From positions 1 to 15,098 of the IMG/VR virus record IMGVR_UViG_3300045988_068227: a DNA stretch of 15,098 nt; one strand, given 5' to 3'. The translations under genes and the position numbers were made by a program. The notes beneath the pieces are model-generated. The model did not search any database. It worked only from the letters and a program-made list of their open reading frames with translations, and was not told the DNA's origin. Shown here in pieces: positions 1-14,927 of the stretch; the stretch's first letter is position 1, and the number at the start of each line of letters is the position of its first letter. The DNA comes from a virus.

Positions 1-129
1 GGCTTTCGTTATTCCCAATGAGAACACGACCCCCATTTGGTTAAAAAACCACGAAAAAATACTTGACAAATAATAAGCTGTGTGTTATTATAATTATAGG
101 AACAATGAAACCACATAAAAATAAGGAGG
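1..129. repeat. Left inverted terminal repeat (74 bp perfect, imperfect to about 129)
   Basis: Bases 1-74 are the exact reverse complement of 15025-15098. My manual alignment continues to the AAGGAG at about 129 / 14972 with 7 mismatches and one 1-nt indel. Long ITRs are typical of protein-primed linear phage genomes. Confidence 0.9.
63..91 (+). promoter_or_regulatory. Early promoter inside the left ITR (sigmaA type, extended -10)
   Basis: TTGACA at 63-68, a 17-bp spacer ending in TGt, and TATTAT at 86-91 (part of TGTTATTATAAT). The first SD and ATG follow at 123-140. Confidence 0.75.
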
Positions 130-137
130 AAATTAAA

Positions 138-314
138 ATGACAGAAGCAAGATTGTATAATTTAGCTTATGAACAATTACTTGAAAATTTTGTTGAGGTG
201 TGTGACTGTGTTCTGTCACATCCTAATGATGAAGTAAAGCAATATGAAAAGGAGATTTTATGGACTGAGTTAGTTCAGCTTAAGTCAGAAATGAGAGATA
301 AAAATATTAATTAA
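138..314 (+). CDS. Hypothetical early protein (58 aa)
   Basis: The ORF track starts at TTG 63, but that TTG is the -35 box. In-frame ATG 138 lies 8 nt after AAGGAGG (123-129). No motif recognised. Confidence 0.6.
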   Translation: MTEARLYNLAYEQLLENFVEVCDCVLSHPNDEVKQYEKEILWTELVQLKSEMRDKNIN

Positions 315-327
315 GGAGGAATAAAAA

Positions 328-744
328 ATGAAAAAAATAAAGGTAGTAAGTATTGATACGATAGTGAATATGAAAGGTGGCAAGCCTTATTATGAAAACA
401 AGTATAGAGAAGTGGGGGATAAATGTTATCACATTGGATATAGTTCTTATAGTTTGGAAACTGCTCTTGAATATAAAGATGAATTTTTTGAGTTAGTAGA
501 AATAGAAAGTGACTTAGTTCCATTTAATGTAAAATACAAAGTAGTATTCGAAATATTTAAACAAGATATAGAGCTAGGGCTATACGATAAATCTTTAGTA
601 GCAGTGGCTATGCAAATTGGCAGACTATCTGCCTTTTTAGAGCTATCAGATTTTACAGAGGACGAGAAAGATAATGAAGAAAATAAATTGCGTGAATTAT
701 GCAATTGTTGGGAAAAAAGATATTATTCAAAGGAGGAAAAATAA
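328..744 (+). CDS. Hypothetical early protein (138 aa)
   Basis: GGAGG at 315-319 lies 8 nt before ATG 328. The acidic C-terminal part is EDEKDNEENK. No family recognised. Confidence 0.7.
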   Translation: MKKIKVVSIDTIVNMKGGKPYYENKYREVGDKCYHIGYSSYSLETALEYKDEFFELVEIESDLVPFNVKYKVVFEIFKQDIELGLYDKSLVAVAMQIGRLSAFLELSDFTEDEKDNEENKLRELCNCWEKRYYSKEEK

Positions 745-1176
745 ATGATTCAATACAGACTACATAATATTACCGATTTTGGCGTAGAAATCCACGACTT
801 TTACACTGAAAACTCATTAAACAACTACATAGCCTTATTTGTAGACCCTCCGTATTGGGTTGAAAATTTAGAAGCACATGAAAATGTGTATATAGGTTTT
901 GACGGTCATACAAAAGTAGTTACCACCGATAAACTAGATGACTTAAATGTTTCACGTGAAACATCACACGAAACTGAAATAGACTGGATAAAAAGGCACA
1001 CACCTATAGAAGAAGAAAAAGAACCATACACTAAACTAGAAAAGATATCTTCTTTCTTAGGTATTTTATTCGTCATTATCATGACAACTTTTTTATTATA
1101 TCTTTTCTTATCTTCTGTATCATTTATAGCAGAACATTTTTCAGAGTTTACTTGGAAAATTTTTAACATTTTATAA
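745..1176 (+). CDS. Hypothetical early membrane protein (C-terminal transmembrane segment)
   Basis: GGAGG at 732-736; ATG 745 abuts the TAA of the previous gene. A hydrophobic stretch, ISSFLGILFVIIMTTFLLYLFLSSVSFI (about aa 101-128), suggests a membrane anchor. The gene contains one copy of the 18-bp palindrome in its coding sequence. Confidence 0.7.
   Translation: MIQYRLHNITDFGVEIHDFYTENSLNNYIALFVDPPYWVENLEAHENVYIGFDGHTKVVTTDKLDDLNVSRETSHETEIDWIKRHTPIEEEKEPYTKLEKISSFLGILFVIIMTTFLLYLFLSSVSFIAEHFSEFTWKIFNIL
947..964. promoter_or_regulatory. 18-bp perfect palindrome ATGTTTCACGTGAAACAT, copy 1 (intragenic)
   Basis: Exact match read directly from the sequence. It encodes NVSRET within the 745-1176 ORF. 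Confidence 0.85.
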
Positions 1177-1189
1177 AGGAGGAAAACAG

Positions 1190-1384
1190 ATGGCAAAATT
1201 AACAAATCAATTACTACGATACAAAGTAATGTTTACAAAAGGTGGAACGGGCGGTTACACTGCTCGCGTCATGATACCAAAAGAAGCGATACGCGATTTA
1301 GACATTCACCCAGGAGATAGTATTGAGTATACACGTGTACCACATGGATTACTATTAAGAAAAGTGCAAAAGGAGGGAGATTAA
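1190..1384 (+). CDS. AbrB/SpoVT/MazE-type DNA-binding protein (64 aa), candidate transcriptional regulator
   Basis: AAGGAGG lies upstream of ATG 1190. The sequence YTARVMIPKEAIRDLDIHPGDSIEY fits the SpoVT-AbrB swapped-hairpin signature (xxIPkeirxxLgixxGDxvef). The gene is immediately upstream of the putative TP and polymerase genes. Confidence 0.7.
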   Translation: MAKLTNQLLRYKVMFTKGGTGGYTARVMIPKEAIRDLDIHPGDSIEYTRVPHGLLLRKVQKEGD

Positions 1385-1387
1385 AAG

Positions 1388-2095
1388 ATGGCAAATAAGC
1401 GTAGAAAAAAGAAACAAACAAAAGCCGAGATTATTCAAAAAGAATATTCTCATGAATACACTAAATATCTAGCACGTGTTAGAAATCAGCAAAAACAAGG
1501 TGTACAAGTAAAGATAATTAAACGAGTAAAAAATCCAATGCAAGCTTCGATTGATAGAATTAAAAAACAGACCGCAAAAGAAATACGAAAAAATGCGACG
1601 GTTGTTGATATGATTACAGGTGAGAAAATAACTCCTAAAGAATATGGTCGTAAACATGCACTTGAAAGAAATAGAGTTTTCATTAAATTAACGCCACAAG
1701 AACAGGAATATGCTCGGCTTCACGGTTATGATTTAAAAGAGTTAAAAGCGATACTAAAAAAGGGAATTAGAGTCAATATAGCAACACCTGTGTTAGACTA
1801 TGAACTCATTATTGATTCTTGGTATGATTCATTAGACAGTTTCCATCCAAAAGTAGCAACATTGTTAAGAGAAAAAACCGATGCACTGTTGTCAAATGCT
1901 ACAGAAAGAGATAGAGCGCTATTTGCGTATACCTATTCAAAAGCATCAGAAGCATTTCCAACAGAGTACTACATGGACAAAGCAACGGTTGACGCGGTGT
2001 TTTGGAATATATTGAAAAAGATGGGCGTCCTTAGTGTAACAAAAGACTTTCAAGATTTTATTCAAATGCTAGATATTGCTATAGAAGAAGAGTAA
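1388..2095 (+). CDS. Putative terminal protein (replication primer)
   Basis: The gene is directly upstream of, and apparently co-transcribed with, the protein-primed DNA polymerase, as gene 3 precedes gene 2 in phi29. It has a highly basic N-terminus (MANKRRKKKQTK) and an acidic C-terminus. I could not see direct sequence similarity to the phi29 TP, so the call rests on synteny and composition. Confidence 0.5.
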   Translation: MANKRRKKKQTKAEIIQKEYSHEYTKYLARVRNQQKQGVQVKIIKRVKNPMQASIDRIKKQTAKEIRKNATVVDMITGEKITPKEYGRKHALERNRVFIKLTPQEQEYARLHGYDLKELKAILKKGIRVNIATPVLDYELIIDSWYDSLDSFHPKVATLLREKTDALLSNATERDRALFAYTYSKASEAFPTEYYMDKATVDAVFWNILKKMGVLSVTKDFQDFIQMLDIAIEEE

Positions 2096-2111
2096 AAAAT
2101 GAGGTGATATA

Positions 2112-3998
2112 ATGTCACGAAAAAAGAAAGTAACCTTTTGGGCATGCGATTTTGAGACGACCGTGTGGGGCGAAAAAGTAGAACAGGAAAAACGCAAAAA
2201 ACAAGACAGTACAGAAGTATGGAGCGGAGCTGATGTAGCGTTATATGACGATACTGAAACTGTAACGATAACGCACTCTATAAGAGATTTCTTAAATAGA
2301 TTTTTAACAATGAACGGCAATAATATTTTATATTTTCACAACCTTGCATTTGATGGTTCTTTCATAGTTGATTTTCTATTGAAAGAGGGTTGGGAGTGGG
2401 TGCACTGTAAAGATAAAGAAATGCGTTCAAAGCAATTTCAGACCTGTATTTCAGATATGGGAACGTGGTATTGGGTTAAATTAAAATGGAATAAGACCTT
2501 TTTAGAGATTAGGAACTCGTTGAAGCTTATGCCCTCTTCGTTGAAAAATATAGGTAAATCGTTTGGCACAAAGCACCAAAAATTAGATATGGAATACGAG
2601 GGCGAAAGATACGCTTATTGTAATATATCAGAAGACGAGAAGAAATATATTGAAAATGATGTATTAGTGCTAAAAGAAGCATTAGAAATGATGTTCAATG
2701 AAAAACATGATAAACTAACGATAGGGTCATGTTGCTTAGCAGAGTTTAAAAGTTTTTATGAAAAGAAACAATATGATAAGTTGTTTCCCGATATTAGAGA
2801 GGATTACTTAGACGAAACAATAACAGGCGTATGGAATCAGTGGGATTATGTTCACAAGTCGTATCATGGCGGCTGGTGCTATGTCAACCCCCAATATGCT
2901 CATACTGTAGTAGGTGACGGTCATGTATATGATGTAAACTCTCTCTATCCATCTATGATGCATAGTATCAGCGGAAATAAATACCCATTTGGGCACGGGG
3001 AATATCATAGGGGAGCGCCACCCTATGAACTTATAAGTTCTACTAATAAATATTTTTTTATCCGCTTCAATTGCCGTTTTCAGTTGAAAAAAGGCGCGTT
3101 CCCATGGTTACATATTAGGCAGAGTGCATTATATAAAGCCAATGAAAATCTATATAGCTCGAATGTTAGATATAAAAGTGAATATTATCGGTATTATCGT
3201 GATATCGATGGACAGATGCATGATACAAATATTACCCTCACTATGACCTGTACTGACTGGGAGTTGTTCCAAGAAACATATGATATCTATGATTTAGTTA
3301 TTTATGATTATATATGGTTTTATGCAAGAGAGGGGTTTTTTGATGAATATATTAATAAATATGGAGAAGAGAAAAGAACTTCAAAAGGTTTTAAAAGGCA
3401 GAAAGCGAAACTCTTTTTAAATAATCTCTATGGAAAATTTGCCATGTCGGATAATTCCTCGTATAAAGAGCCTTATCTTGACGAAGATGGAATTATTAGA
3501 TTTATCTTGCACGAGGAACATGAGAAGAAAGTCGGCTATATTCCTATAGGTAGTGCTATTACTTCATATGCCATGAATTTTACAATCCGTCATGCTATGG
3601 CAAATTATGACCGCTTTTGCTATGCAGATACAGACTCTATACACTTGATAGGACTTGACAAAGCGAACAAGGTAGTTGAGCATCCAACTAATTTTTGTTG
3701 CTGGAAATGTGAAAGTACGTTCGATTTTGCATATTATGAGCGTCAAAAGACTTATGCAGAACATATAGTTGAAGAGAATCACGAGCCTTGTGAGCCTTAT
3801 CTTGATATAAAAGCGTGTGGCATGAGTAGTCAAGCGAAACGAAAATTTATCGAAGAGGGTAAAGACATCTCAGAGTTATCTAAAGGTCTGAATATGGAAT
3901 CTTGTAACTTAAAAGCAGAGCGCGTAAAAGGTGGGATTATATTAAGGAGTAAAGACTTTAAAATTCATGAACAAAAAGATAAAAAAATTATGATATAA
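2112..3998 (+). CDS. Family-B DNA polymerase, protein-primed (phi29 gp2-like)
   Basis: Motifs appear in canonical order: Exo I DFET, Exo II NLAFDGSF, Exo III YIENDV, YHGG, motif A DVNSLYPS, motif B KLFLNNLYGKF, motif C YADTDS, and KxY (QKTYAE). The long A-to-B and B-to-C spacings are consistent with TPR1/TPR2 insertions. Confidence 0.95.
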   Translation: MSRKKKVTFWACDFETTVWGEKVEQEKRKKQDSTEVWSGADVALYDDTETVTITHSIRDFLNRFLTMNGNNILYFHNLAFDGSFIVDFLLKEGWEWVHCKDKEMRSKQFQTCISDMGTWYWVKLKWNKTFLEIRNSLKLMPSSLKNIGKSFGTKHQKLDMEYEGERYAYCNISEDEKKYIENDVLVLKEALEMMFNEKHDKLTIGSCCLAEFKSFYEKKQYDKLFPDIREDYLDETITGVWNQWDYVHKSYHGGWCYVNPQYAHTVVGDGHVYDVNSLYPSMMHSISGNKYPFGHGEYHRGAPPYELISSTNKYFFIRFNCRFQLKKGAFPWLHIRQSALYKANENLYSSNVRYKSEYYRYYRDIDGQMHDTNITLTMTCTDWELFQETYDIYDLVIYDYIWFYAREGFFDEYINKYGEEKRTSKGFKRQKAKLFLNNLYGKFAMSDNSSYKEPYLDEDGIIRFILHEEHEKKVGYIPIGSAITSYAMNFTIRHAMANYDRFCYADTDSIHLIGLDKANKVVEHPTNFCCWKCESTFDFAYYERQKTYAEHIVEENHEPCEPYLDIKACGMSSQAKRKFIEEGKDISELSKGLNMESCNLKAERVKGGIILRSKDFKIHEQKDKKIMI

Positions 3999-4001
3999 TC
4001 C

Positions 4002-4030
4002 TTGACTATATTTAGTTGTTATGTTATTAT
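4002..4030 (+). promoter_or_regulatory. SigmaA-type promoter for the p6-like/SSB-like operon
   Basis: TTGACT at 4002-4007, a 17-bp spacer ending in TGt, and TATTAT at 4025-4030 (TGTTATTATAAT, the same box as the ITR promoters). Confidence 0.7.
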
Positions 4031-4098
4031 AATGTAATAAATAAAACATATTACATTACATTCACACTCACAAAAACAGAAAAAAGGAGGAAAACAAG

Positions 4099-4398
4099 AT
4101 GTTTACAAGAACATTAGTATCAGCGGAGGTTTCTGTACAAAGAATCTACAAAGACAAGGAGACGGGCGAAATCATTAAAGATTACTTTGAGGAAACATTG
4201 CCAAACTGTAAGACAAGAGATAAAGCGGAAATCTTGCTTGAACGACAGTACAAAGGCGATATTCTTTCCATTTTGGATATTAAATTCAAATTAGAGAAAC
4301 GCGCTATGACAGACGAACAGTTCTTACTTAATTCAGATGTCAAGAGCGAAAAAATTGTTACCGAAGCCGAGTTGCAGGAAATGAAAAAGGAAGATTAA
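4099..4398 (+). CDS. Putative histone-like dsDNA-binding protein (phi29 p6-like)
   Basis: AAAGGAGG lies upstream. Size (99 aa), the acidic tail, and colinear resemblance to my recollection of phi29 p6 support the call: ERQYKGDILSILDIK vs KRKYKGEPVQVVSVE, and MTDEQFLLNSDV vs LPVEKFLEVATV. This needs alignment to confirm. Confidence 0.45.
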   Translation: MFTRTLVSAEVSVQRIYKDKETGEIIKDYFEETLPNCKTRDKAEILLERQYKGDILSILDIKFKLEKRAMTDEQFLLNSDVKSEKIVTEAELQEMKKED

Positions 4399-4423
4399 AG
4401 GAAAAAACAGGAGGTAAATAACT

Positions 4424-4774
4424 ATGGTAGAAATTAAAGAAATGAGTAGAGAGTTCACAAAGGTCGAAAAGTACCTTATGACAACAGCACCTGACATTGA
4501 GCCGTTAAAAAACATTGCTGATGGTGAATGTATCCCAATTGACGGTTTTCTTATTTTTGACGATATTAAGGATAGTGGAGAAGTACAGGAGATTGTGAGC
4601 ATTATCACACCAGACAAAAAAGTATACTCTGGACAGTCCGCAACCTTTAGGCAGTCTTTGAAAGATATTGAAAGTGTTATGGACGATGAAAAATTTTCTA
4701 TCATTAAAATTAGCGGAAAGACAAAAGCAGGTCGCGATTATATTAATTGCACCTTAGACGTATCAAATTTATAA
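4424..4774 (+). CDS. Putative ssDNA-binding protein (phi29 p5-like)
   Basis: GGAGGT lies upstream. The 116-aa protein resembles my recollection of phi29 p5: LKNIADGECI vs FKNLPDGTII, IITPDKKVYSGQS vs TIFAADGSLYSAIS, and GKTKAGRDYINCTL vs GTSSKGNVFFSLQL. Unverified. Confidence 0.45.
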   Translation: MVEIKEMSREFTKVEKYLMTTAPDIEPLKNIADGECIPIDGFLIFDDIKDSGEVQEIVSIITPDKKVYSGQSATFRQSLKDIESVMDDEKFSIIKISGKTKAGRDYINCTLDVSNL

Positions 4775-4818
4775 TATGATGCCGTGGGAATACCATTTTA
4801 ATTCTCTTCTTATAAAGA

Positions 4819-4841
4819 GGTGGCTATATGCCACCTTTTTT
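4819..4841 (+). terminator. Rho-independent terminator
   Basis: A GGTGGC (4819-4824) / GCCACC (4830-4835) stem with a 5-nt loop, followed by TTTTTT (4836-4841). Confidence 0.8.
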
Positions 4842-4850
4842 ATAAAATAA

Positions 4851-4868
4851 ATGTTTCACGTGAAACAT
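4851..4868. promoter_or_regulatory. 18-bp perfect palindrome, copy 2
   Basis: Exact ATGTTTCACGTGAAACAT. It ends 4 nt before the GGAGG (4873-4877) of the ATPase gene. Confidence 0.85.
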
Positions 4869-4884
4869 GAATGGAGGTGCTAAA

Positions 4885-5931
4885 ATGATGAATGATGATT
4901 ATTATCATTGCGAGAGATTGCTAACCATGAAAGATAAATACGGGAACACACCTGACATTTTTATTGTAGATGGCAACAGAACAGCAGGAAAAAGCTATTC
5001 TATCAAATGTCGACAAGTTTCTGATTTTTTAAAAGATAAATACAGACCGGAAAACCAGTTCATCTATTTATACAGAAATGTTGTTGACATGAAAAATTGT
5101 GCGGACACCTATTTTGGGGATATCGCGGAAAAATTTGACGGTTATGTCATGACAGAAAAAAGCTTGATGCGTGGTGCGTTGGTGCAGTTATTTATTAATG
5201 AAGAGACATGCGGTTATTGTTTAGCTTTGTCGGTTGCTAGAAAATATAAAAAAATGCGTGGGTTGTTCGTCAACATTCGTTCTGTATTTTTTGACGAATA
5301 CCAAGATGAAGATAATATATATTTACCTAATGAAGTAAATAAACTGCTATCGTTGCTTACAACTATCAGTTCGGGTCACGGTAAACAGCACAGGAGAGTA
5401 ATTCTATATATGGCATCCAATACGGTATCATTGCTAAATCCTTATTATAGCGTATTTGGAATCAATAAAATGTTAAAGAGAGATACCAAATTTTTACGGG
5501 GTGATGGTTGGGTATTTGAGCGAACATATAATGAAAGCGCATCAACAGCGTATAAGGAAAGTGCTATTGCGCGAGCTTTTCGAGGTGCTGACTATAACGA
5601 ATACGCGAGCGAAAATAAATATCTAAATGACAATGAATGTCTGATTGGGAAACCATCAGGGCAGTCACGTTATATTTGTACAATTAAGTACAATGATAAT
5701 CTGTATAATGTCAGAAAATATGATGTATGTCTATATGTATCAACAGGGGCAGATGATAGTTTTCCGACACGGATTTGTTTCACAAAAACTGATGTGATAG
5801 ATAACACAGCTATTCGTGTCAACTCGACCCATTATATCGTTACGATGTTACGGGAATATTTTAACAGAGGCTTACTATTATTTGAAAATTTGGAGTGTAA
5901 GAACATGATATTTGATGTCATATCTTTTTAA
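4885..5931 (+). CDS. DNA encapsidation (packaging) ATPase, phi29 gp16-like
   Basis: Walker A GNRTAGKS and Walker B VFFDEY. Colinear with remembered gp16 blocks (QFIYxxR, IPNEV/LPNEV, SNxVSxxNPY). ATG 4885 lies 7 nt after GGAGG and is preferred to ATG 4867, which sits inside the palindrome. Confidence 0.92.
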   Translation: MMNDDYYHCERLLTMKDKYGNTPDIFIVDGNRTAGKSYSIKCRQVSDFLKDKYRPENQFIYLYRNVVDMKNCADTYFGDIAEKFDGYVMTEKSLMRGALVQLFINEETCGYCLALSVARKYKKMRGLFVNIRSVFFDEYQDEDNIYLPNEVNKLLSLLTTISSGHGKQHRRVILYMASNTVSLLNPYYSVFGINKMLKRDTKFLRGDGWVFERTYNESASTAYKESAIARAFRGADYNEYASENKYLNDNECLIGKPSGQSRYICTIKYNDNLYNVRKYDVCLYVSTGADDSFPTRICFTKTDVIDNTAIRVNSTHYIVTMLREYFNRGLLLFENLECKNMIFDVISF

Positions 5932-5948
5932 TGTTTCACGTGAAACAT
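5931..5948. promoter_or_regulatory. 18-bp perfect palindrome, copy 3 (abuts a -35 box)
   Basis: Exact copy that starts at the last base of the ATPase stop codon. Its last T is the first T of TTGACA at 5948-5953. The 20-bp form AATGTTTCACGTGAAACATT spans 5930-5949. Confidence 0.85.
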
Positions 5949-5976
5949 TGACATTTTAAATAATCTGTGTTATTAT
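5948..5976 (+). promoter_or_regulatory. Consensus sigmaA promoter driving the non-coding island
   Basis: TTGACA at 5948-5953, a 17-bp spacer ending in TGt, and TATTAT at 5971-5976 (CTGTGTTATTATAAT, nearly identical to the ITR promoter). Confidence 0.75.
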
Positions 5977-5982
5977 AATATT

Positions 5983-6138
5983 GTACCCAAAATAATGCGA
6001 ACATTGTAATTGATATACACGCACATAGACAAGCAGTCTGATATCAATTTTTTGGCTTTGCGTTCCCTTTGATTCGATTATTTTGTAAAGTACAATATGT
6101 TTCACGTGGACAATGTTTCACGTGAAACATTTTTATTT
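5983..6138 (+). ncRNA. Candidate structured non-coding RNA (pRNA-like); core 5983-6096
   Basis: There is no ORF or SD between 5932 and 6170. The promoter lies directly upstream. The 5' and 3' ends pair (5981-6001 with 6073-6095), and there are internal helices plus complementary loops. The palindrome hairpin at 6113-6130 followed by TTTTATTT could terminate the transcript. See the finding for details. Confidence 0.45.
6097..6130. promoter_or_regulatory. Tandem palindromes: degenerate copy (6097-6114) plus perfect copy 4 (6113-6130)
   Basis: 6097-6114 reads ATGTTTCACGTGGACAAT (3 mismatches). 6113-6130 is exact. The two overlap by 2 nt and lie 5 nt upstream of the TTTACA -35 box. Confidence 0.85.
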
Positions 6139-6164
6139 ACAAACAAATCTATTTGTGTTATGAT
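6136..6164 (+). promoter_or_regulatory. Weaker sigmaA-like promoter upstream of the lysis genes
   Basis: TTTACA at 6136-6141, a 17-bp spacer ending in TGt, and TATGAT at 6159-6164. The predicted start at about 6171 would leave a very short leader before AAGGAGG, which lowers confidence. Confidence 0.4.
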
Positions 6165-6184
6165 AGAAAAAAGGAGGTGATATC

Positions 6185-6421
6185 ATGTCAAATGAAGTTA
6201 TCACATTAATTAATAGTTTAGGGCTTCCGACCGTGGTTGCATGTGCGTCCATGTGGTATGTAAAGTACAGAGAGGACAAAAATGACCAAAAAATTGAAAG
6301 AATGACGGAAGAACACAAGGAAGAAATGACAGATATTACGAACGCGCTGAACAATAACACATTAGCGTTACAACGTATCTGTGACATTTTTGATAGTAAG
6401 GAGGATATCAAACATGAGTAA
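6185..6421 (+). CDS. Holin-like protein (BhlA/UviB-like, single N-terminal TM)
   Basis: A 78-aa protein with an N-terminal hydrophobic helix (ITLINSLGLPTVVACASMWYV) followed by a charged coiled-coil-like tail. It overlaps the endolysin start by 8 nt. Confidence 0.6.
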   Translation: MSNEVITLINSLGLPTVVACASMWYVKYREDKNDQKIERMTEEHKEEMTDITNALNNNTLALQRICDIFDSKEDIKHE

Positions 6422-7400
6422 AAAAGCAGTTGACATTTCCTATCATAATGGGATTATTGATTTTGAACGATTAAAAAACGCTGTCGATTATGTGATTATT
6501 CGATGCGGATATGGACAGGATATGACATCACAAGACGATAAACAGTGGGCAAGAAATGTCAGTGAGTGCGAACGGTTGGGCATTCCATACGGAGTGTATT
6601 TTTATTCCTATGCAAAAACAACCGCTCGAATTGAGGGTGAAATTAATCACTGTCTTAGATTGTTACAAGGGCACACACCTAATCTACCTGTATTTTTCGA
6701 CAGCGAGGAAAAAGGAACACAGTCTGTAGCAAAGCATAACGCAAAGCGTTTTTGTGATGCTATGATTACACACGGGTATAAAGCTGGAATCTATGCTAGT
6801 AAATCATGGTACGAGAATTATATTGGTGAGACTTGGGGGTATGATTTATGGATTGCGCGGTATTCGAATGTGTTAGGTGTAGACAATGTAGACATTTGGC
6901 AGTATTCCAGTAATGGTCGAGTTAATGGCATTAATGGGAGATGTGATGTGAACCACGTTTATAAAGACTATGGAGCTTCAAATCCTGTACCCGATGTTCC
7001 ACAGAGTCCACCAACGCACGCAACCCCAAGAAATGAATTGATTGCCATGGGACAACAGCACGCCATTAATTTTACAGGGGTTCAAATTGCAGTTGACGGA
7101 ATTGTAGGAAGAAATACAAAAAGAATGGCAGTACGCGTGGTGCAACACGCTATGAACATGGATTACGGGCGCACAATAGCAGAGGACGGTCTTGTTGGTA
7201 AAAAGACAAGGGCGAAAGCTGGACGGCATTATGTAAGGCGAGGGGAAACACAGTACTTAGTCACAGCGCTTGAAATCTTATGTTTATTACAGGGAAAAAA
7301 TCCGAACGGTGTGGAACACCCGGGAACATTTGGAGGAGGACTGGCGCGCGCTTGTGGAATTGAAATCGTTTATGCGAAAGATATGTTATATATGATTTAG
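6414..7400 (+). CDS. Endolysin: GH25 muramidase with C-terminal peptidoglycan-binding repeats
   Basis: ATG 6414 lies 9 nt after GGAGG (6400-6404); the track's GTG 6381 start lacks an RBS. GH25 hallmarks: DISYHNG, YVIIRCGYG, GVYFYSYA, LWIARY, WQYSSNGRVNGI. The C-terminus has two DG(I/L)VG(R/K)xT units like PG_binding_1. Confidence 0.9.
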   Translation: MSKKAVDISYHNGIIDFERLKNAVDYVIIRCGYGQDMTSQDDKQWARNVSECERLGIPYGVYFYSYAKTTARIEGEINHCLRLLQGHTPNLPVFFDSEEKGTQSVAKHNAKRFCDAMITHGYKAGIYASKSWYENYIGETWGYDLWIARYSNVLGVDNVDIWQYSSNGRVNGINGRCDVNHVYKDYGASNPVPDVPQSPPTHATPRNELIAMGQQHAINFTGVQIAVDGIVGRNTKRMAVRVVQHAMNMDYGRTIAEDGLVGKKTRAKAGRHYVRRGETQYLVTALEILCLLQGKNPNGVEHPGTFGGGLARACGIEIVYAKDMLYMI

Positions 7401-7402
7401 TT

Positions 7403-7441
7403 ATTATTCACGTGGAACAAAAAATGTTTCACGTGAAACAT
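7403..7441. promoter_or_regulatory. Tandem palindromes: degenerate copy (7403-7420) plus perfect copy 5 (7424-7441)
   Basis: 7403-7420 reads ATTATTCACGTGGAACAA (4 mismatches, with the same TTCACGTGGA variant as 6097-6114). 7424-7441 is exact and ends 5 nt before GGAGG at 7447-7451. Confidence 0.85.
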
Positions 7442-7461
7442 TTTAAGGAGGTTAGTAAAAA

Positions 7462-8469
7462 ATGCCAAATATCAATGTAGCATATCAGTGGGCGGTCAAT
7501 GCGTGTAATGCACCCAATATTGGCTATTCACAGCAATATAGAAGAGGACAGACTGTGAACGGTATTACTTATTATGATTGTAGTTCTTTTATTTCGAAAG
7601 CATTAACGGAAGCGGGATTTTTCTCGGTGAACCCATGGTTCACCACAAGGACAGAAGAGGGATACTTATTACAAGCTGGATTCAAAGAAATTAACATTAA
7701 TGAAGCGTGGCAAGCTGGGGACATCGTGTGGCGTAGTGGACATACTGAGATGGTTTATCAAGGAGCTGGTGTGGGAAATGGAGGGGTTACCATGGGCGCG
7801 CATAGTGGACGTTATCCATTACCCGAACAAGTAAGCATCAACTCTCATGTGTCAAAACCGTCCGCATGGACAAAGATATACCGCTATGGTGATAGTGCTG
7901 GAATGACCCTCGAATGGATTCATGGAAACCGATATCTGACAGATGACGAAATGAAAAATAACGCATATGTATTTTATAGTACAATGTTTTTCAAAGATTT
8001 TACGCTCAATGCAATTGCTGGAATGTTAGGAAATATGGAGATAGAATCTAACATTAATCCCGAACTATGGCAGTCTCTAAAAGAGGGGAATTATAATGGG
8101 GGTTACGGTTTAGTTCAATGGACACCAGCCACAGTCTACACAGAATGGGCGAACGCTCACGGGTACGATATCACAGACGGCTACTATCAGTGTGTTTGGC
8201 TCGATGAAGAAACCGTAAGCAGTGGACAATGGATAGAGACTACGAAATATCCGATATCATGGGAAGAGTTCCGAAAGTCTACAAAAGAGCCAGATTATCT
8301 AGCGTCTGCATTTTTAAAGAATTTTGAGCGTGCAGGAGTGGAAAAAGAAGAGGAGCGTAAAAAGAACGCACTAAAATGGTATGCATATTTGCAGAAGTTA
8401 TCACCGTACCCAATCCACCCACATACACGAAAAACAAAAATGCCACTTTACTTTTTCTTGCCGTGGTGA
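7462..8469 (+). CDS. Virion (tail)-associated peptidoglycan hydrolase: NlpC/P60-like cysteine peptidase plus phage tail lysozyme domain
   Basis: The N-terminal half carries a papain-like signature (YYDCSSFIS ... GDIVWRSGHTEMVY). The C-terminal half has AGMLGNMEIESNINP ... GGYGLVQWTP, typical of the phage tail lysozyme family. This is a functional analogue of phi29 gp13. Confidence 0.8.
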   Translation: MPNINVAYQWAVNACNAPNIGYSQQYRRGQTVNGITYYDCSSFISKALTEAGFFSVNPWFTTRTEEGYLLQAGFKEININEAWQAGDIVWRSGHTEMVYQGAGVGNGGVTMGAHSGRYPLPEQVSINSHVSKPSAWTKIYRYGDSAGMTLEWIHGNRYLTDDEMKNNAYVFYSTMFFKDFTLNAIAGMLGNMEIESNINPELWQSLKEGNYNGGYGLVQWTPATVYTEWANAHGYDITDGYYQCVWLDEETVSSGQWIETTKYPISWEEFRKSTKEPDYLASAFLKNFERAGVEKEEERKKNALKWYAYLQKLSPYPIHPHTRKTKMPLYFFLPW

Positions 8470-8475
8470 TATAAT
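8447..8475 (+). promoter_or_regulatory. Possible promoter for the structural operon
   Basis: TTTACT at 8447-8452, a 17-bp spacer, and a perfect extended -10, TGaTATAAT, at 8467-8475. It overlaps the stop codon of the tail-lysin gene. Confidence 0.45.
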
Positions 8476-8520
8476 AAATTCTGTAAAAGGGTGACACTAA
8501 ATAAAGGAGGTAAATATTGT

Positions 8521-8802
8521 ATGAATTTTAAAGAAGCTTTAAACGAATTAATTGATGCCGTTGCAGACGTAGAGGAACATGGAGACGCTATTGAAGTTTT
8601 ACAAAACTACGAGAGCGAAAGAAGTGGAGAAACTGACAGCGAATGGAAAGATAAGTATACCAAACTCGAAGCCGAGTACAAAAAACGCTTTAAAGAGCGT
8701 ATGAAAGAGTCAGCCACTAACGCAGACAGCGAAGAAAAGAAAGATGAAAAAGAAGAAAAAATTACCGTCGAAGATTTAGACTTTGACGGTAAGACAGAAT
8801 AA
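8521..8802 (+). CDS. Scaffolding protein (phi29 gp7-like)
   Basis: ATG 8521 lies 10 nt after GGAGG (8506-8510); the track's GTG 8491 start is unlikely. A small, acidic, helical protein directly upstream of the capsid gene. Its C-terminal EKITVEDLDF resembles the ETITIEDLEAK I remember from gp7. Confidence 0.75.
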   Translation: MNFKEALNELIDAVADVEEHGDAIEVLQNYESERSGETDSEWKDKYTKLEAEYKKRFKERMKESATNADSEEKKDEKEEKITVEDLDFDGKTE

Positions 8803-8815
8803 GGAGGTATGAAAA

Positions 8816-10087
8816 ATGGCAGAAGCAACAAACGCGAATATATTAAAAGCGGTTACACAGGAACTTTCTTTTGAGGTTCAGAATCATTTACCAACAGAGG
8901 TATCAGACAATTTACAGGCAGTGTATGATAACATTTTAAATTATGCGCCTGTAAGAAATGAAATCGTGCCGTCATTAATCAATCGTATCGGTATGCAGAC
9001 GGTGGACAGTATCGCGTGGAGAAATCCGTTAGCACGATTTAAGAAAGAGCCAATGCGTTATGGCGAGACACACGAGGAAACTTATATAAATATGTGCAAG
9101 GGACGTGTATATGATTCACAAGCAGATTTTAAATTTGCTTTTCAGCAGTATCAGTCCTATATCATGAGCGTGTTCCACAATGTCAATCTTGAAATTCAGT
9201 ACCCAGTCACGGTTACATATGACAATCTGAGAAAAGCTTTTACCAGTGAGTATGGCATTCGTGACATGATTATGGCAAAAATGGAGAGCGCTATCACAGG
9301 GGCGAACTGGGACGAATACCTTGCTATGCGTGATTTGATTAATGTCGGGTATGAAAAAGAGGTGCTTCCGGCAGTGACTGTTGACGCGATTGTAGATGAA
9401 GCATCAGCGAAAAAGTTATTGATTGAGGTCAAAAGAGCTGTTAAAGAATTTGGCTTCCCATTACCAGAAAATAACCCAGCAGGCGCAACTTCTCATGCTA
9501 TGCCAGCAAGTCTGGTTTGGATTACTACGCCAGAAGTAAATGCTCAGATTAGTGTTGACGCTTTAGCTTACGCATTTCACATGGACAAAGCAGACGTGGA
9601 GGTTCAGACGGTCATTGTAGACAAATTTGCGAATAGCGCTATTCAAGGCGTACTATGTGACGTTCGTTTCTTCAACGTGCGCGACCAGTTCAAAGAAATG
9701 AGCGACCAAAGACTTGCGAATGTATTATCTTGGAATTATTTCTATACACAGGTGGAAATGATTAGTGCTAGTCCGTTCTATCCAATCCGTGTATTTACGA
9801 CCGACACAGTTGTTGAAGCACCGACACTGAGCGTCACAGCAGGGACTTACACAGCTGGACAGACACAGGAAGTAGAGGTTACTGTGACAGGTGGTACAGG
9901 CACATATCATCAGAATTTAGTCACTCTTGAAGTAGAAAGCGGTGCTACTTCCGCGAAAACATACGTCATTCCGGGAACGCATCTGTTACACACAGGAGCG
10001 GACGAGACAGGAACTATCGTATTAAAAGCAATTTACAGACCAAACGAGACTATCACAAAGACAGCAAGTTTCACAAAATCGTTGTAA
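8816..10087 (+). CDS. Major capsid protein (phi29 gp8-like) with C-terminal Ig-like domain
   Basis: Colinear with remembered gp8: SLINRIGMQTV..NPLARFKKEP vs SLVDRIGLVVI..NPLKKFKKGQ, VDALAYAFHMDKAD vs VDVLAKAFNMNRTD, and WNYFY vs WNYYY. The C-terminal T/G/V-rich beta segment (SVTAGTYTAGQTQEVEVTVTGG) is BIG2-like. Confidence 0.9.
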   Translation: MAEATNANILKAVTQELSFEVQNHLPTEVSDNLQAVYDNILNYAPVRNEIVPSLINRIGMQTVDSIAWRNPLARFKKEPMRYGETHEETYINMCKGRVYDSQADFKFAFQQYQSYIMSVFHNVNLEIQYPVTVTYDNLRKAFTSEYGIRDMIMAKMESAITGANWDEYLAMRDLINVGYEKEVLPAVTVDAIVDEASAKKLLIEVKRAVKEFGFPLPENNPAGATSHAMPASLVWITTPEVNAQISVDALAYAFHMDKADVEVQTVIVDKFANSAIQGVLCDVRFFNVRDQFKEMSDQRLANVLSWNYFYTQVEMISASPFYPIRVFTTDTVVEAPTLSVTAGTYTAGQTQEVEVTVTGGTGTYHQNLVTLEVESGATSAKTYVIPGTHLLHTGADETGTIVLKAIYRPNETITKTASFTKSL

Positions 10088-10106
10088 TTAACGGAGGTAG
10101 TTATCT

Positions 10107-11723
10107 ATGATAAATTTACCTGTTCAAGGAGGGGTTGCACCACGCGACCCCGAAACAAAATTGAGATTGTATAGTGGAGTACCATGGTCTGACGAGTATG
10201 AACACGTTAGATTATACCAGTCAAAAGAAGATTTGCTAAATCATTTAGAGTTATATCGTAAACATATCAATTGTGTTGACTTGTCACATCTTGCGCCTAT
10301 AAAGCTAGGGGATTATGATATTCGCGTACCATTCACAGAAATGAAAGCACTTAATCTCAATTATTTAGCTTTTCAGAATAGTGGTATTTCTAATGAGTGG
10401 GTGTTTTGCTTTATTAATTCGATTGAGTGGCTCTCTGAAAAAACAACTAGAATTAACTTTTCCTTAGACGTTTTTCAAAATAACTTTTACGATGCAAATA
10501 TCAAACCTTGCTTTGTAGAGTATCATCATATCCCTAGAAGTGCCGACGCAATAGGAGAAAATCTAACACCTGTCAACCTAGAAACAGGCGAAACGATTGT
10601 ATCACGTCACAAAAAATTAGACTTAACACCAACGGAGTGTTGCGCTTTTGTAACACGAGGAACAACAGAGCAAAGTTGGTTTGAGGGTCGCGTTGAAAAT
10701 GGCGTTTATTGTTGGGGTAGTATCGGACATTATGATGTAACTACAGAAGATGGTCTAAAAGGGATTAACACTTTGTTGGAAGATTATAACAATCAAGGTG
10801 CACAAGACGCTGTTATAGGATTATTCATGTCCCCAAAATTATGTACACTTGCTTTAGGTGGAAAAGAAATAAAGCCTAAAATAACAAGTATGCAGATATC
10901 TGACAATGTATTTGAGGGATATAAGCCAAAAAATAAAAAGTTATATTCTTATCCATGGTTATACTGTTTGGCTGACAACAATCAAGGCAATACACATATA
11001 TATAGATATGAGTACAGTTACAACCGTGATAAGTCTCTTGAGTTTGACAGCTACGGTACAATTGCAACGCTACCGCAAGTCTTGACAGCACCGAAAAATT
11101 ATAAGACTCGCGAAGAGTTAGGGCATGGACTAATGAGCGAAGCACTTATTAATGCCTCTTTTCCGATGTGTTCTTTTTCTTCCGATACTTATAGGGCGTG
11201 GCTTGCTCAAAATAAAAGTTCTATCGCTCTATCTCAAGTTCATACCGCTGTCGATGCCACTCTAGGAACAGGTACGGCAATAGCTGGATTGGCTGGTGGA
11301 AGTTTACAGGGAGGTCTTAACGGTCTAGGCAAAACGACGAACGCTTTTTGGGACGCTCTTGGAATGTTAGCTAATCAGACAGACAGGGCAAGAAATTCAG
11401 GAGTAACACATGGAAAAGCGTTATCAGAAAATGTATTGACAGGAATAAAAGAGTGTGGCGTTGATTTCTATGAAATGTCATGTAAAAGACAATTTGCAGA
11501 AATGGCTGATAGCTTTTTCGAGCAATTTGGATATCCGATAAACAAAATCACAACACCGTATTTGCGTTCTCGAAATTACTGGAACTATGTAAAAACTTCA
11601 CATTGTGGCTTCACAGGTACAATTGATTTAGACCAGTTAAAAAAATTGAGAAATATATTTGACAACGGTGTAACTTTGTGGCATACTGACGACATAGGGA
11701 ATTATGGTTTATCAAACGACTAA
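10107..11723 (+). CDS. Tail knob / distal tube protein (phi29 gp9-like)
   Basis: YLAFQNSGISNEWVFCFINSIEWLSEKTTRINFSLDVFQNNFYD aligns with the remembered gp9 block [44 protein letters not shown]. The position between the capsid and portal genes also fits. Confidence 0.85.
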   Translation: MINLPVQGGVAPRDPETKLRLYSGVPWSDEYEHVRLYQSKEDLLNHLELYRKHINCVDLSHLAPIKLGDYDIRVPFTEMKALNLNYLAFQNSGISNEWVFCFINSIEWLSEKTTRINFSLDVFQNNFYDANIKPCFVEYHHIPRSADAIGENLTPVNLETGETIVSRHKKLDLTPTECCAFVTRGTTEQSWFEGRVENGVYCWGSIGHYDVTTEDGLKGINTLLEDYNNQGAQDAVIGLFMSPKLCTLALGGKEIKPKITSMQISDNVFEGYKPKNKKLYSYPWLYCLADNNQGNTHIYRYEYSYNRDKSLEFDSYGTIATLPQVLTAPKNYKTREELGHGLMSEALINASFPMCSFSSDTYRAWLAQNKSSIALSQVHTAVDATLGTGTAIAGLAGGSLQGGLNGLGKTTNAFWDALGMLANQTDRARNSGVTHGKALSENVLTGIKECGVDFYEMSCKRQFAEMADSFFEQFGYPINKITTPYLRSRNYWNYVKTSHCGFTGTIDLDQLKKLRNIFDNGVTLWHTDDIGNYGLSND

Positions 11724-11736
11724 AGGAGGTGTATAA

Positions 11737-12636
11737 ATGCGAAACCCATTAAGAGTTTTTGAGAGAAATATCAATAAAAATAAAAAAGATGATTTTGAAA
11801 TCATTAAATCTATCTTTTTTTATGATATATTTGATATATTTGTAAACAGGTATCAATGGCATAATCTACCCAAAGAAATTTTACCGATGTATATAGAACA
11901 AACTCTATTTTGGCACGGTTTGGGTGTATTCATCAAAGATGATATCGCTGGGTACGCTTTTATGAAAGTCGTATTATCAGGTTTGCCCGATATTTACAAT
12001 ATACCTAAAGATAGAATTGCTTATACAGCAAATGGATATATTGAAGAGTACGGCAAAGAAAACAGCTGTATTTTATGGAATAACTACTCGACTATGCCGT
12101 ATTACTATAAAGCGTTAATGTATGCAGATGCTATGGCGAACACTTGGAAAACAAAAGACATTAATATGTATGCACAGCGTACACCTGTTGCACTTTCTTC
12201 ATCAGACAACGAAAAACTGAGCTTTGAAGTTGTAGGCGAAGAGTACGATAACTATTTACCTATTATAAAGCTGTCCGATTCATTAAACTTAAAAGATATT
12301 AAAGCTTTGAACATGGGCGCACCTTACATCGTTGATAAATGTGAACAAGAATTAAGAGATTTATGGTCACAGGTATTAACATCTTTAGGATATGAAAGCA
12401 ACCCTGTAGAAAAAGGTGAACGTCTCGTGACAGGTGAAACGGCTGGAAATAACGGACAGGTTGAAGCAAATCGAAATGTTGGTCTGACATTACGGAGAAG
12501 ATGTGCAAATGCTATAAATAAATTATGGGGTCTTAATGTAACGGTAGACTTCAATAGTGAACTGCCTACTATGCTAAATGGTTATGTACCCGACAAGTAT
12601 ATGCAAAAAGGGAAAGAGGGTGACGAGATTGAGTAA
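11737..12636 (+). CDS. Portal / upper collar (connector) protein (phi29 gp10-like)
   Basis: WHNLPKEI, AQRTPVAL, GAPYIVDK, EKGERLVTGE and INKLWGLNVTVDF match the gp10 blocks WENLPPTI, AQKTPVLI, DAPYVVDK, EKKERMVTDE and INELYGLNVKVKF. Confidence 0.9.
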   Translation: MRNPLRVFERNINKNKKDDFEIIKSIFFYDIFDIFVNRYQWHNLPKEILPMYIEQTLFWHGLGVFIKDDIAGYAFMKVVLSGLPDIYNIPKDRIAYTANGYIEEYGKENSCILWNNYSTMPYYYKALMYADAMANTWKTKDINMYAQRTPVALSSSDNEKLSFEVVGEEYDNYLPIIKLSDSLNLKDIKALNMGAPYIVDKCEQELRDLWSQVLTSLGYESNPVEKGERLVTGETAGNNGQVEANRNVGLTLRRRCANAINKLWGLNVTVDFNSELPTMLNGYVPDKYMQKGKEGDEIE

Positions 12637-13330
12637 ATACACAACAACAGTTAAAAAAATTTGTGAAAGCTTTATCCCATCCCAAGAATTATGGAGCATG
12701 GACTTATCCGTGCAAAGAACTATAGATAAAACACAAGACAAATTTTTTGACTTTGATTTTCCGTTTTATTCTGAGGACAGAAAAGATTTATATACTTTTA
12801 AGACATACTTTTTACTTAGGTATTGGAATAATTATATTGGCTTTGAAACTCTAGGAATGTGGAAAACTGCTTTCATGGCAAAAATGCATGAATTAATGCC
12901 ATATTATACTAAATTGTATGATGCAATTCAAAATGATAACCCTTTTACAAATGTAAATATAACAACCACAGAAGCAGAAAAAGGAAACGAAAAAACAACG
13001 ACTAAAGCAACAGATTCAGGAGACAGCGAGGTAAAAAACAATCAAAACTATGAAAATATTGACAGCGACAACCCACAAGTTACCGTAGCAACACAAGACT
13101 ATGCTAGCGCTATGAGCAGAGGCGAAACTGTCAATAACACGACTACAAATGCAAAAAATGAACACACAGGAAACGATAACAAAGACAGTAAAAGAGACAG
13201 AGACACGAAAGAGATAGGATTAAGAGGAAAATCAACGAGTGAAGCAATCGAAGAATACCGAGAGCAAATACAGAATATCAATCAAGAACTTGTAGAAGCT
13301 TGCCGAGATTTGTTTCTAAAAGTTTGGTGA
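12629..13330 (+). CDS. Lower collar protein (phi29 gp11-like position)
   Basis: The gene immediately follows the portal gene. The block FDFDFPFYSEDRKDLYTFKTYFLLRYWNNYIGFETLGMWK..LMPYYTKLY resembles lower-collar proteins of small podophages. Start is uncertain: TTG 12629 (GAGGG 8 nt upstream), GTG 12620, or ATG 12578 (59-nt overlap with the portal gene). Confidence 0.65.
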   Translation: MSKYTTTVKKICESFIPSQELWSMDLSVQRTIDKTQDKFFDFDFPFYSEDRKDLYTFKTYFLLRYWNNYIGFETLGMWKTAFMAKMHELMPYYTKLYDAIQNDNPFTNVNITTTEAEKGNEKTTTKATDSGDSEVKNNQNYENIDSDNPQVTVATQDYASAMSRGETVNNTTTNAKNEHTGNDNKDSKRDRDTKEIGLRGKSTSEAIEEYREQIQNINQELVEACRDLFLKVW

Positions 13331-13346
13331 TAAGGAGGTGAAATGC

Positions 13347-14186
13347 ATGACAGAAGAATTAAAGCCTGTAGTTCCTTTACTTTGTTGCGATATCCCTAGT
13401 GTATATAGTAATAAACAGAGTTATTATGAATGCTTGTGCTATATAGGATATAAAGTCAATGAATGTATTGACGCAATCAACGGGTTCACAGATGCATATA
13501 AACAGTACACCGACGAAAAAGTTTCAGAGTTGAAAACGTATATTGACGGACTTAACCGTGATATCTACAACCATATCACGGAAGTTGAAACAAATATCCG
13601 TCATGATATGGACACTAGGGATAATGAGCTTGACGAAAAAATCAATAAAGTACAGACAAATTTACTTGATAAAATCAGTACGTTAAACATTCTGATTTAT
13701 GACCTAAACGCTGAGACAAGAGCGCATATTGACACAGAGGTTAAAAAACTCTATGATTATATCAATGACTATGTGCCAAACAACATGGAGTTGTTAAACC
13801 CTGTAAGAGGATATCGAACGAGTCTGAACCAAGCACTAGCAGATATGTACGACAATCTACGCTATTATGCTTTGACTTGTAACGAGTTTGATTCATTAAA
13901 TTTAAGTTGTACAGAATTTGATGGGTTATCAATTAACTGTACAGAATTTGATTTGTACGGTGCAAAAAGATTCAGAGTAGATAGCAACTTATATATGCAT
14001 GACCCATTTACAGGAGAGTATGTTTTTTATCAAGATGTAATTTACAAACTTGCAGAGTTGCATTTCGATAACCCAATTACAGCTAGCGAGTTTGACGCTT
14101 TATTATTGACGGTAACAGCATTCCAGTCTAAAGCCTTAAGCGCTTACACATTTGACAGTAACGCAAAAACGGCGTTAAAATTATAA
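13347..14186 (+). CDS. Tail fibre / appendage protein with coiled coil and decapeptide xEFD repeats
   Basis: ATG 13347 lies 8 nt after GGAGG (13334-13338). The N-terminal SYYECLCYIGYKVNECIDAIN motif is common at the N-termini of Firmicute phage tail proteins. A central heptad-rich region is followed by repeated (T/S)(C/A)xEFD units. Confidence 0.6.
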   Translation: MTEELKPVVPLLCCDIPSVYSNKQSYYECLCYIGYKVNECIDAINGFTDAYKQYTDEKVSELKTYIDGLNRDIYNHITEVETNIRHDMDTRDNELDEKINKVQTNLLDKISTLNILIYDLNAETRAHIDTEVKKLYDYINDYVPNNMELLNPVRGYRTSLNQALADMYDNLRYYALTCNEFDSLNLSCTEFDGLSINCTEFDLYGAKRFRVDSNLYMHDPFTGEYVFYQDVIYKLAELHFDNPITASEFDALLLTVTAFQSKALSAYTFDSNAKTALKL

Positions 14187-14208
14187 ATTAAAGGAGGATT
14201 TAAAAACT

Positions 14209-14916
14209 ATGAGTTCAACAAACAAAACAACCTATTACGAATTAAGCCAGTATATCGGTACTGACAAGCCGACATATTTAGGTGATTACAATTCTGACAT
14301 GAGTAAAATTGATGCAGGAATTCACGGGGCAGACGATAAAGCCACCACAGCTTCACAAAATGCAGGAAGCGCCATCGCTAGAGTTGGCGAAGTTGAAAAA
14401 ACTCTGCAATCACATACAAGCGCTATTACAACGTTGCAGACAGATGTTACTGGTTTAAAAGAGAGTGTAAAAACAGCACAGAACACAGCCACCACAGCAG
14501 ATGGAAAAGCGGACAGTGCACAGCAGACAGCCAACAGTGCACTTTTAACCGCTAATAATGCCAGCGCTAAAGCCGATAATGTGAATAAAGATGTAACACT
14601 GTGGACAGGTAGTGTTAAAAACTCAAGTGTTGCACTTAGTGACAGCTTGACGAATTACAGATTTTTATATATTGAAACAAACGCAGGAATTAGCCCTTTG
14701 TTTGCTTATAGAAATGACAAGAAAAAATATGTAGGTTGTCAACAGGTTTTAAAAGATGGGGCGACAAACACTGTGTCAACAATATCAGTCAAACTAGATA
14801 TAGTTGATGATACGCACATCACGGTTAGCACTAATGTTATTGACCACGCATTTAGTAGTACGCACCCAGCACTTGATGCTGTGTACACATTAGGCATTTA
14901 TGGCATCCCGAGATAA
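14209..14916 (+). CDS. Receptor-binding / tail fibre protein
   Basis: The N-terminus (TYYELSQYIGTDKPTYLGDYNSDMSKIDAG) is the common phage fibre N-terminal motif. An A/T/Q-rich coiled-coil stalk is followed by a C-terminal globular domain of about 100 aa beginning VTLWTGS. Confidence 0.65.
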   Translation: MSSTNKTTYYELSQYIGTDKPTYLGDYNSDMSKIDAGIHGADDKATTASQNAGSAIARVGEVEKTLQSHTSAITTLQTDVTGLKESVKTAQNTATTADGKADSAQQTANSALLTANNASAKADNVNKDVTLWTGSVKNSSVALSDSLTNYRFLYIETNAGISPLFAYRNDKKKYVGCQQVLKDGATNTVSTISVKLDIVDDTHITVSTNVIDHAFSSTHPALDAVYTLGIYGIPR

Positions 14917-14927
14917 ACTGAGTATGA

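Follow-up and report, generated by a model that had tools for sequence, protein, structure and literature searches.

Five copies of a palindrome matching the bacterial chromosomal parS consensus in the genome of an uncultured phi29-like phage

The repeated palindrome and its setting

The viral DNA of IMG/VR record IMGVR_UViG_3300045988_068227 (positions 1 to 15,098; from here: the window, meaning the whole analysed stretch of 15,098 bp) contains five exact copies of the 18-bp palindrome ATGTTTCACGTGAAACAT. At the sequence level, the inner 16 bp of this element, TGTTTCACGTGAAACA, are letter for letter the consensus of chromosomal parS, the site bound by ParB/Spo0J, and we refer to the copies as parS-1 to parS-5. 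A pattern search located them at 947-964 (parS-1; 16-bp core 948-963), 4851-4868 (parS-2), 5931-5948 (parS-3), 6113-6130 (parS-4) and 7424-7441 (parS-5), all without strand assignment and in agreement with a preliminary description of the window that had been made from its letters alone. Chance expectation was derived from 200 dinucleotide-preserving shuffles. Matches to the 18-mer with at most three mismatches were observed six times versus 0.01 expected, and none of the 200 shuffles reached six.

Two degenerate copies, likewise without strand assignment, accompany two of the perfect ones. The first, ATGTTTCACGTGGACAAT at 6097-6114, has three mismatches and overlaps parS-4 by 2 nt. The second, ATTATTCACGTGGAACAA at 7403-7420, has four mismatches, lies beyond the reach of the three-mismatch scan and was found by direct reading of the sequence; its right half, CACGTGGAACA, is the variant known from Bacillus subtilis and phi29. 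Both contain TTCACGTGGA, and their centres are 16 bp (6097/6113 pair) and 21 bp (7403/7424 pair) away from those of their perfect partners. The copies at 5931, 6113 and 7424 extend to the 20-bp palindrome AATGTTTCACGTGAAACATT. The shared core, the two distances and the three extended copies had all been described correctly. The reported excess of CACGTG held as a count, with nine copies in the genome versus 2.1 expected, but it was rejected as a separate signal, the palindrome copies themselves supplying seven of the nine. A lone CACGTG lies at 1332-1337, one position to the left of the earlier assignment to 1333-1338, within a 10-bp palindrome (TACACGTGTA, 1330-1339) in the gene of an AbrB-like protein.

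The window is a complete linear phi29-like genome, as follows from its gene content together with an inverted terminal repeat (window 1-118 and 14981-15098) that is perfect over 74 bp and near-identical to ~118 bp. Every gene is on the + strand. The five sites, at 0.9, 4.9, 5.9, 6.1 and 7.4 kb, are confined to the left half at a spacing of 0.2-3.9 kb. The region bracketed by them holds the gene of the packaging ATPase, a small non-coding unit and the genes for lysis; the structural block has none.

parS-1 lies within the open reading frame (ORF) 745-1176. parS-2 separates a terminator-like hairpin (4810-4845) from the ribosome-binding site that serves the packaging ATPase gene. This gene (gp16 family, 4886-5931, + strand; Pfam Podovirus_Gp16, E = 7e-34) occupies the space between parS-2 and parS-3. 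The TAA stop codon of the ATPase gene is immediately followed (0 nt) by the 16-bp core of parS-3, the end of which is 1 nt away from the downstream -35 hexamer of a strong promoter (5948-5976, TTGACA-17-TATTAT plus an upstream TG). The first T of this promoter is the last base of the 18-mer. parS-4 is located upstream of the holin/endolysin promoter at 6136-6164 (TTTACA-17-TATGAT with a TG), which starts 6 nt beyond the end of the 18-mer at 6130, so that the core ends 7 nt before the -35 hexamer. parS-5 follows the endolysin gene and precedes the tail-lysin gene (7462-8469, + strand; Pfam/PHROGs) with its ribosome-binding site. GGAGG ribosome-binding sequences occur 4-5 nt downstream of the copies at 4851 and 7424. 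The promoter scan and these spacings bear out the placement given in the preliminary description for both promoters and both ribosome-binding sites.

parS-3 and the tandem pair at 6097-6130 bracket a unit (5948-6096, + strand) that consists of the strong promoter and a candidate structured non-coding RNA of ~113 nt (~5983-6096). The predicted fold of this RNA has a z-score of -3.7, its 5′ end pairs with its 3′ end, and seven predicted pairs show compensatory changes among 18 relatives. It has no match in Rfam, and a scan of the window against that database returned no packaging-RNA or other family; a packaging-RNA gene is a possible identity for this candidate. parS-4 pairs with its degenerate partner in a hairpin of 14 bp (-18.2 kcal/mol), behind which lies the T run TTTTTATTT; the scan flags this structure as terminator-like, and the tandem pair looks like the terminator of the candidate packaging-RNA gene.

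Correspondence to chromosomal parS and distribution among phages

In a review table, the parS of B. subtilis is given as TGTTNCACGTGAAACA and that of other species as the exact 16-mer found here (consensus sources PMC7022226 and 10.1101/724823). A study on the specificity of ParB and Noc reports TGTTTCAC-GTGAAACA as the parS consensus and TATTTCCC-GGGAAATA, i.e. TATTTCCCGGGAAATA, as the Noc site. The sites in the window read TGTTTCAC and not TATTTCCC and are thus of the parS and not of the Noc type. In a full-text search, the papers listed as quoting the exact 16-mer dealt mostly with ParB-parS, besides replication-origin finding and chromosomal inversion. The core of the degenerate copies, TTCACGTGGA, is in its sequence the half-site form of phi29 and B. 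subtilis.

Like chromosomal parS/ParB (Spo0J) centromeres, the window combines the identical 16 bp with several clustered copies, as they occur around the replication origin. Here, in contrast, they reside on a 15-kb genome of the virulent type and not near oriC, and the partner protein would come in trans from the host. Among the phage sites, which alone were compared for this purpose, the AA/TT flanks are 86-93% conserved as well (an A at -1 in 93% and at -2 in 86% of the exact sites), giving a 20-bp site.

According to the summary of Meijer et al. 2005 in PMC2731898, the number of parS sites in phi29 is five, and the entrapment of its genome in spores depends on Spo0J, which takes part in bringing the genome to the prespore. 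Our scan of the phi29 record yielded TGTTTCACGTGGAACA at 10445, 15903, 17243 and 18760, hence four sites versus the five of the literature. Both phages have a linear phi29-family genome with several copies of host-type parS and no ParB gene, and in both a copy directly adjoins (0 nt) the stop codon of the gene for the packaging ATPase. They differ in that the window has five perfect symmetric consensus copies plus two degenerate tandem partners, in that four of its five sites are intergenic whereas three of the four in phi29 lie within genes, and in that two of its sites adjoin promoters. Moreover, Spo0A boxes are not enriched in the window, and its host is uncultured, probably a clostridial gut bacterium, whereas phi29 infects Bacillus.

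Conservation of the motif in related phages, a check suggested in the preliminary description, was found in all close relatives sampled. These were collected independently of the motif, by searching one viral-contig collection with the capsid protein; at least 84 were confirmed, and the 80 listed were used. Their capsid proteins are 88-96% identical to that of the window, with one at 63%. All 80 listed relatives keep the sites in the same five slots, with two to six exact sites and three to seven at up to two mismatches. The contrast to the surrounding sequence is clear at parS-1, where the 16-mer is 98.7% identical versus 79% in the rest of the fast-diverging ORF 745 (57 distinct relatives). 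Two other slots show 96-98% conservation of the 16-mer versus a background of 87%; for parS-5 the values are 98.1% versus 87% in its flanks. The parS-2 slot holds an exact site in 51 relatives, a site with one mismatch in 14 and with two in four. An exact site is present in the parS-5 slot of 75 relatives, the parS-4 slot is retained, and the degenerate copy at 6097 is conserved in most close relatives. An alignment of the spacer between gp16 and the holin gene was uninformative as a test of conservation, the whole region being conserved in close relatives; the test was based instead on ORF 745, which is divergent, and on clades further removed.

In the viral collection as a whole, the exact 18-mer occurs in at least 120 contigs. 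Among the 120 matches listed, 42 are phi29-like, with polymerase identities to the window or phi29 of mostly 21-51%, a G+C content of 29-54% and one to six sites each; the 42 include four genomes closely related to the window. The same site also occurs in phages isolated on Clostridium symbiosum and Hungatella; CS229P1 and CH17P1 have one copy each. In a broad polymerase-seeded sample, 29 of 80 genomes had parS and shuffled controls had none; within one clade of such a sample it was four of 18 genomes, with five to six sites each at no more than one mismatch. When 99 phi29-like genomes were searched de novo for palindromes (14 bp or longer) that recur in the same genome, only the parS core and one variant of it emerged. 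This symmetric variant, GTTCCACGTGGAAC, replaces the consensus core in L245 and L249, with three copies in each, which suggests that the preference of the host ParB differs slightly there.

The slot directly behind the ATPase gene recurs. In six separate phi29-like lineages a parS core lies 0-1 nt past the TAA stop codon of gp16: in the window (5929-5947), phi29 (L121; 17240-17258), Clostridium phage CS229P1 (L203; 10525-10543) the genomes L018 (5952-5971) and L068 (9082-9100), and the clade of L111 (4843-4862 in L111). The AA flank of this site is available because the TAA stop codon provides the conserved AA. A universal post-gp16 slot was rejected, as it is absent from most parS-bearing genomes of the broad sample. 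The location of the sites at gene junctions appears largely explained by a compact genome, in which non-coding space exists only there, in combination with the need for flanks, often served by the AA of TAA. In L205 the post-gp16 site (4836-4860) sits in an insertion of ~23 nt (AATATAA, the site and a T). Judged from this sequence comparison, the sites appear to have been gained as short insertions and not by point mutations, because the parS-less relatives L209-L219, with 62-76% polymerase identity, do not have that insertion.

Host-type parS in phage genomes may reach much wider than the phi29 family. Bajarodino virus 6 (L303, PQ006135.1), a circular inovirus of 5.9 kb from rodent faeces, has six perfect parS sites at 635, 662, 1414, 2857, 4096 and 5628, three of which begin 0-1 nt behind a stop codon. 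A blastn search with a parS dimer against the records of isolated phages matched 340 of them, including inovirus, microvirus, Microbacterium, Gordonia and Listeria records as well as 30 phages of Clostridium sporogenes.

Gene content, host and the probable binding protein

Genes were identified by Pfam and PHROGs scans of 19 ORFs. Besides the ATPase and the tail lysin, these scans recognized a protein-primed family B DNA polymerase (2112-3998, + strand), a phi29-type single-stranded DNA-binding protein, a holin and a GH25 endolysin, the structural genes for a phi29-type capsid protein, tail knob, portal and lower collar, and an AbrB/MazE-fold protein of 64 aa (1190-1384; Pfam E = 2.5e-07). The last may be the transcription regulator of the phage; its gene holds the separate palindrome TACACGTGTA mentioned above, and no link to the parS sites was found. 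Each terminal arm of the genome has the same strong promoter, TTGACA-17-TATTAT with a TG, at 63-91 (+) and 15036-15008 (-). The right-hand one faces a bidirectional terminator-like hairpin (14933-14965), so its transcript would be very short. A sub-threshold Rfam match to Bacilli-1 RNA at 2691-2756 within the polymerase gene (26 bits versus a gathering score of 55.6, E = 0.019) is probably due to chance.

No homologues of ParA, ParB or p4 were detected among the 19 ORFs. A self-encoded parABS cassette of the P1/N15/plasmid type is thus absent, with no ParA or ParB hit beside the repeats. Such cassettes of P1, N15 and plasmids comprise their own ParA and ParB and their own parS sequences. The window has in common with them an extrachromosomal element with centromere-like repeats for segregation; it differs in the type of the site, which is chromosomal, and in the missing ParA and ParB genes. 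As the phage encodes neither protein, the binder would be the ParB (Spo0J) of the host. The settings in which the site is found, i.e. phi29, the lineages without an AbrB-like protein and the inovirus, have no factor in common other than host ParB, and judging from these sequence comparisons host ParB likely binds the sites.

Gut Clostridia possess ParABS and have 1-10 such sites per chromosome, a range that the perfect sites of the 15-kb genome match on their own. A whole-window megablast gave no matches to isolated phages, the closest capsid proteins of which are less than 34% identical, and the capsid protein had no exact entry in an assembly index. Its nearest match in a bacterial genome is a single 13-kb contig binned with the genome of an uncultured member of the Clostridia.

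Possible functions of the sites and their significance

We consider it probable, largely by analogy to phi29, that the five parS copies let the DNA of a phage without ParB ride on the chromosome-segregation machinery of its host. The points established directly are the parS sequence identity, the strong non-randomness, the conservation of number and position in relatives, and the presence of the same sites in phi29. According to this model, every perfect site would nucleate a ParB dimer, the two degenerate copies probably doing so less strongly, and the dimer would close as a clamp bound to cytidine triphosphate (CTP) and slide over kilobases onto the neighbouring DNA. Because the sites are 0.2-3.9 kb apart on 15 kb, a large part of the phage DNA would turn into a partition complex with ParB and be treated like origin-proximal chromosome, and the ParA/SMC machinery of the host would then move and position the phage DNA. 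The pay-off, following phi29, could be the transport of the infecting genome into the forespore at sporulation or, more generally, inheritance by daughter cells while lysis is delayed. Both tandem pairs might double as RNA hairpins in a secondary role.

Several observations weigh against a role in segregation. The host is known only from metagenomic binning, and only to class level (Clostridia). Spo0A boxes, which complete the phi29 strategy by shutting down the lytic cycle at early and late promoters, are not enriched, with one exact TGTCGAA/TTCGACA versus 1.7 expected, although the clostridial box may differ. This sole box lies at 6696 inside the endolysin gene and none is found at the promoters; spore entrapment specifically is not supported by the sequence. 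The patchy distribution (four of 18 and 29 of 80 genomes) means that the sites are dispensable for the phi29-like family. ParB clamps might slide off the ends of a short linear DNA unless the terminal protein blocks them. Finally, five perfect sites, two of them at -35 boxes and two in front of ribosome-binding sites, would seem more than a segregation tag needs, which leaves room for a regulatory or ParB-titrating role.

The most far-reaching idea, which we regard as speculative and rather unlikely, takes the placement at two -35 boxes, two ribosome-binding sites and the terminator resembling that of a packaging RNA to make host ParB a direct regulator. Centromere mimicry would then be a lysis-deferral switch in which ParB-CTP clamps time packaging and lysis by the cell-cycle or sporulation state of the host, and perfect parS sites would be a widespread but little-described device of small gut phages, shared by many independent phi29-like lineages and by filamentous phages.

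A plainer form, to which we assign a still smaller chance, is that host ParB binds but that the selected function is transcription control, the silencing or timing of the packaging, small-RNA and lysis genes. ParB bound or spreading at the -35 boxes at 5948 and 6136 and over the 5′ leaders of the genes for the ATPase and the tail lysin would act in a way resembling KorB of plasmid RK2. KorB is a plasmid-encoded global repressor of the ParB family that binds a different sequence, the OB operators. These palindromic sites of the ParB family lie immediately in front of -35 boxes and at further fixed positions, as in the window; the binder there is plasmid-encoded, and the transcriptional effect here is only predicted. 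The tight spacing of two cores to -35 hexamers (1 nt and 7 nt) and of two copies to ribosome-binding sites, together with the crowding of all five sites into the left 7.5 kb around the packaging/lysis module and the structural block without any, speaks for such control. The ParB of Pseudomonas aeruginosa is reported to repress promoters beside high-affinity parS (PMC5521831), which also speaks in its favour. However, the sites of phi29 and of distant relatives are often inside genes or away from promoters, the site at 947 lies inside an ORF, and scarce non-coding space with TAA stop codons as flanks explains the junction placement as well.

It is very unlikely, and pure conjecture, that the sites serve as a decoy. 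Replicating genomes with 5-7 sites each would soak up host ParB to the benefit of the phage by interfering with the segregation of the chromosome, with the loading of SMC or with the way in which Soj/Spo0J control replication and sporulation. The equality of one 15-kb genome with an entire gut bacterial chromosome in perfect sites (1-10) would suit a decoy, as would the all-or-none presence among relatives with several copies each. On the other hand, in phi29, the one case studied so far, Spo0J is reported to serve the segregation of the phage's own genome, and phages with a single site, such as CS229P1 and CH17P1, would make a poor sponge.

The preliminary description had also considered an element acting as RNA, and a hairpin could indeed be the selected feature (a terminator, 3′-end stabiliser, processing site or translational operator), with the parS match being incidental. 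In this genome with all genes on one strand, every copy is on the transcribed strand. The tandem pairs yield stems of 13-14 bp at -18.2 and -17.2 kcal/mol, the former with the terminator-like T run after 6097-6130 and the latter, formed by parS-5 and the copy at 7403 over 13 bp, with a short and offset T run; the hairpin 4810-4845 and parS-2 fold jointly at -23.7 kcal/mol. A single copy, however, gives a weak A/U-rich stem of 7-9 bp (-5.7 to -6.9 kcal/mol) that is not terminator-like. In 476 distinct site contexts the changes were one-sided in 392 cases versus 17 two-sided ones, complementarity being kept in eight of the 17, and the central CA/TG bases, at the loop edge of a presumed RNA hairpin, are the most conserved positions. 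With no stem-preserving covariation and highly conserved 'loop' bases, the variant pattern argues for sequence-specific recognition of double-stranded DNA and not of an RNA stem. Nor can a hairpin account for the identical 16-mer in unrelated phages, an inovirus and bacterial chromosomes. Of the earlier proposal, the folding of the tandem pairs stands; as the selected feature, a hairpin is highly improbable, being disfavoured by the breadth of the motif and the variant analysis.

The same two lines of evidence leave next to no room for operators of a dimeric regulator encoded by the phage, such as the 64-aa AbrB/MazE-like protein: a palindromic site beside promoters and a small protein of that fold are present, but the site occurs in phi29, the inovirus and dozens of phi29-like lineages without an AbrB-like protein, homologues of which were detected only in near relatives of the window and the mid-distance contigs L028 and L077, and exact identity with a centromere would be coincidence. 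The proposal of this protein as the general binder thus fails, and so do that of a phage-specific operator, given the universal bacterial consensus of the 16 bp and its presence in AbrB-less phages, and the suggested analogy to p4 of phi29, as neither a p4 homologue was found by the Pfam and PHROGs scans nor a divergent promoter region exists in a genome with genes on one strand. What holds is that the repeats are a non-random palindrome of the kind a dimeric DNA-binding protein recognises and that the phi29 family is the right frame.

As far as its sequence can tell, the palindrome is an already known host site and not a new regulon, and its presence here would extend the known phi29 device to a new clade. 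In the searched literature, phage-borne parS of the host type appears essentially only for phi29 and close relatives, and a 2024 review of phi29-like phages has no mention of parS, Spo0J or spores. Its breadth in phages may thus be under-reported. phi29 is the textbook case, and in that literature nearly the sole example, of a virulent phage borrowing the host centromere to hide in spores. The sites described here carry this device into an abundant uncultured clade of phi29-like gut phages with at least 80 near-identical genome architectures in one collection, and the wider matches suggest that small phages of Clostridia and inoviruses acquired the same perfect site repeatedly. For host prediction, the presence of parS in a phage implies that the ParB of its host matches the site, and the isolated phages of C. 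symbiosum and Hungatella with the same site offer tractable systems. If host ParB does handle these genomes, nominally lytic gut phages could persist via spores or dividing cells, with a bearing on how phages persist in the gut, on spore-based therapeutics and on faecal transplants.

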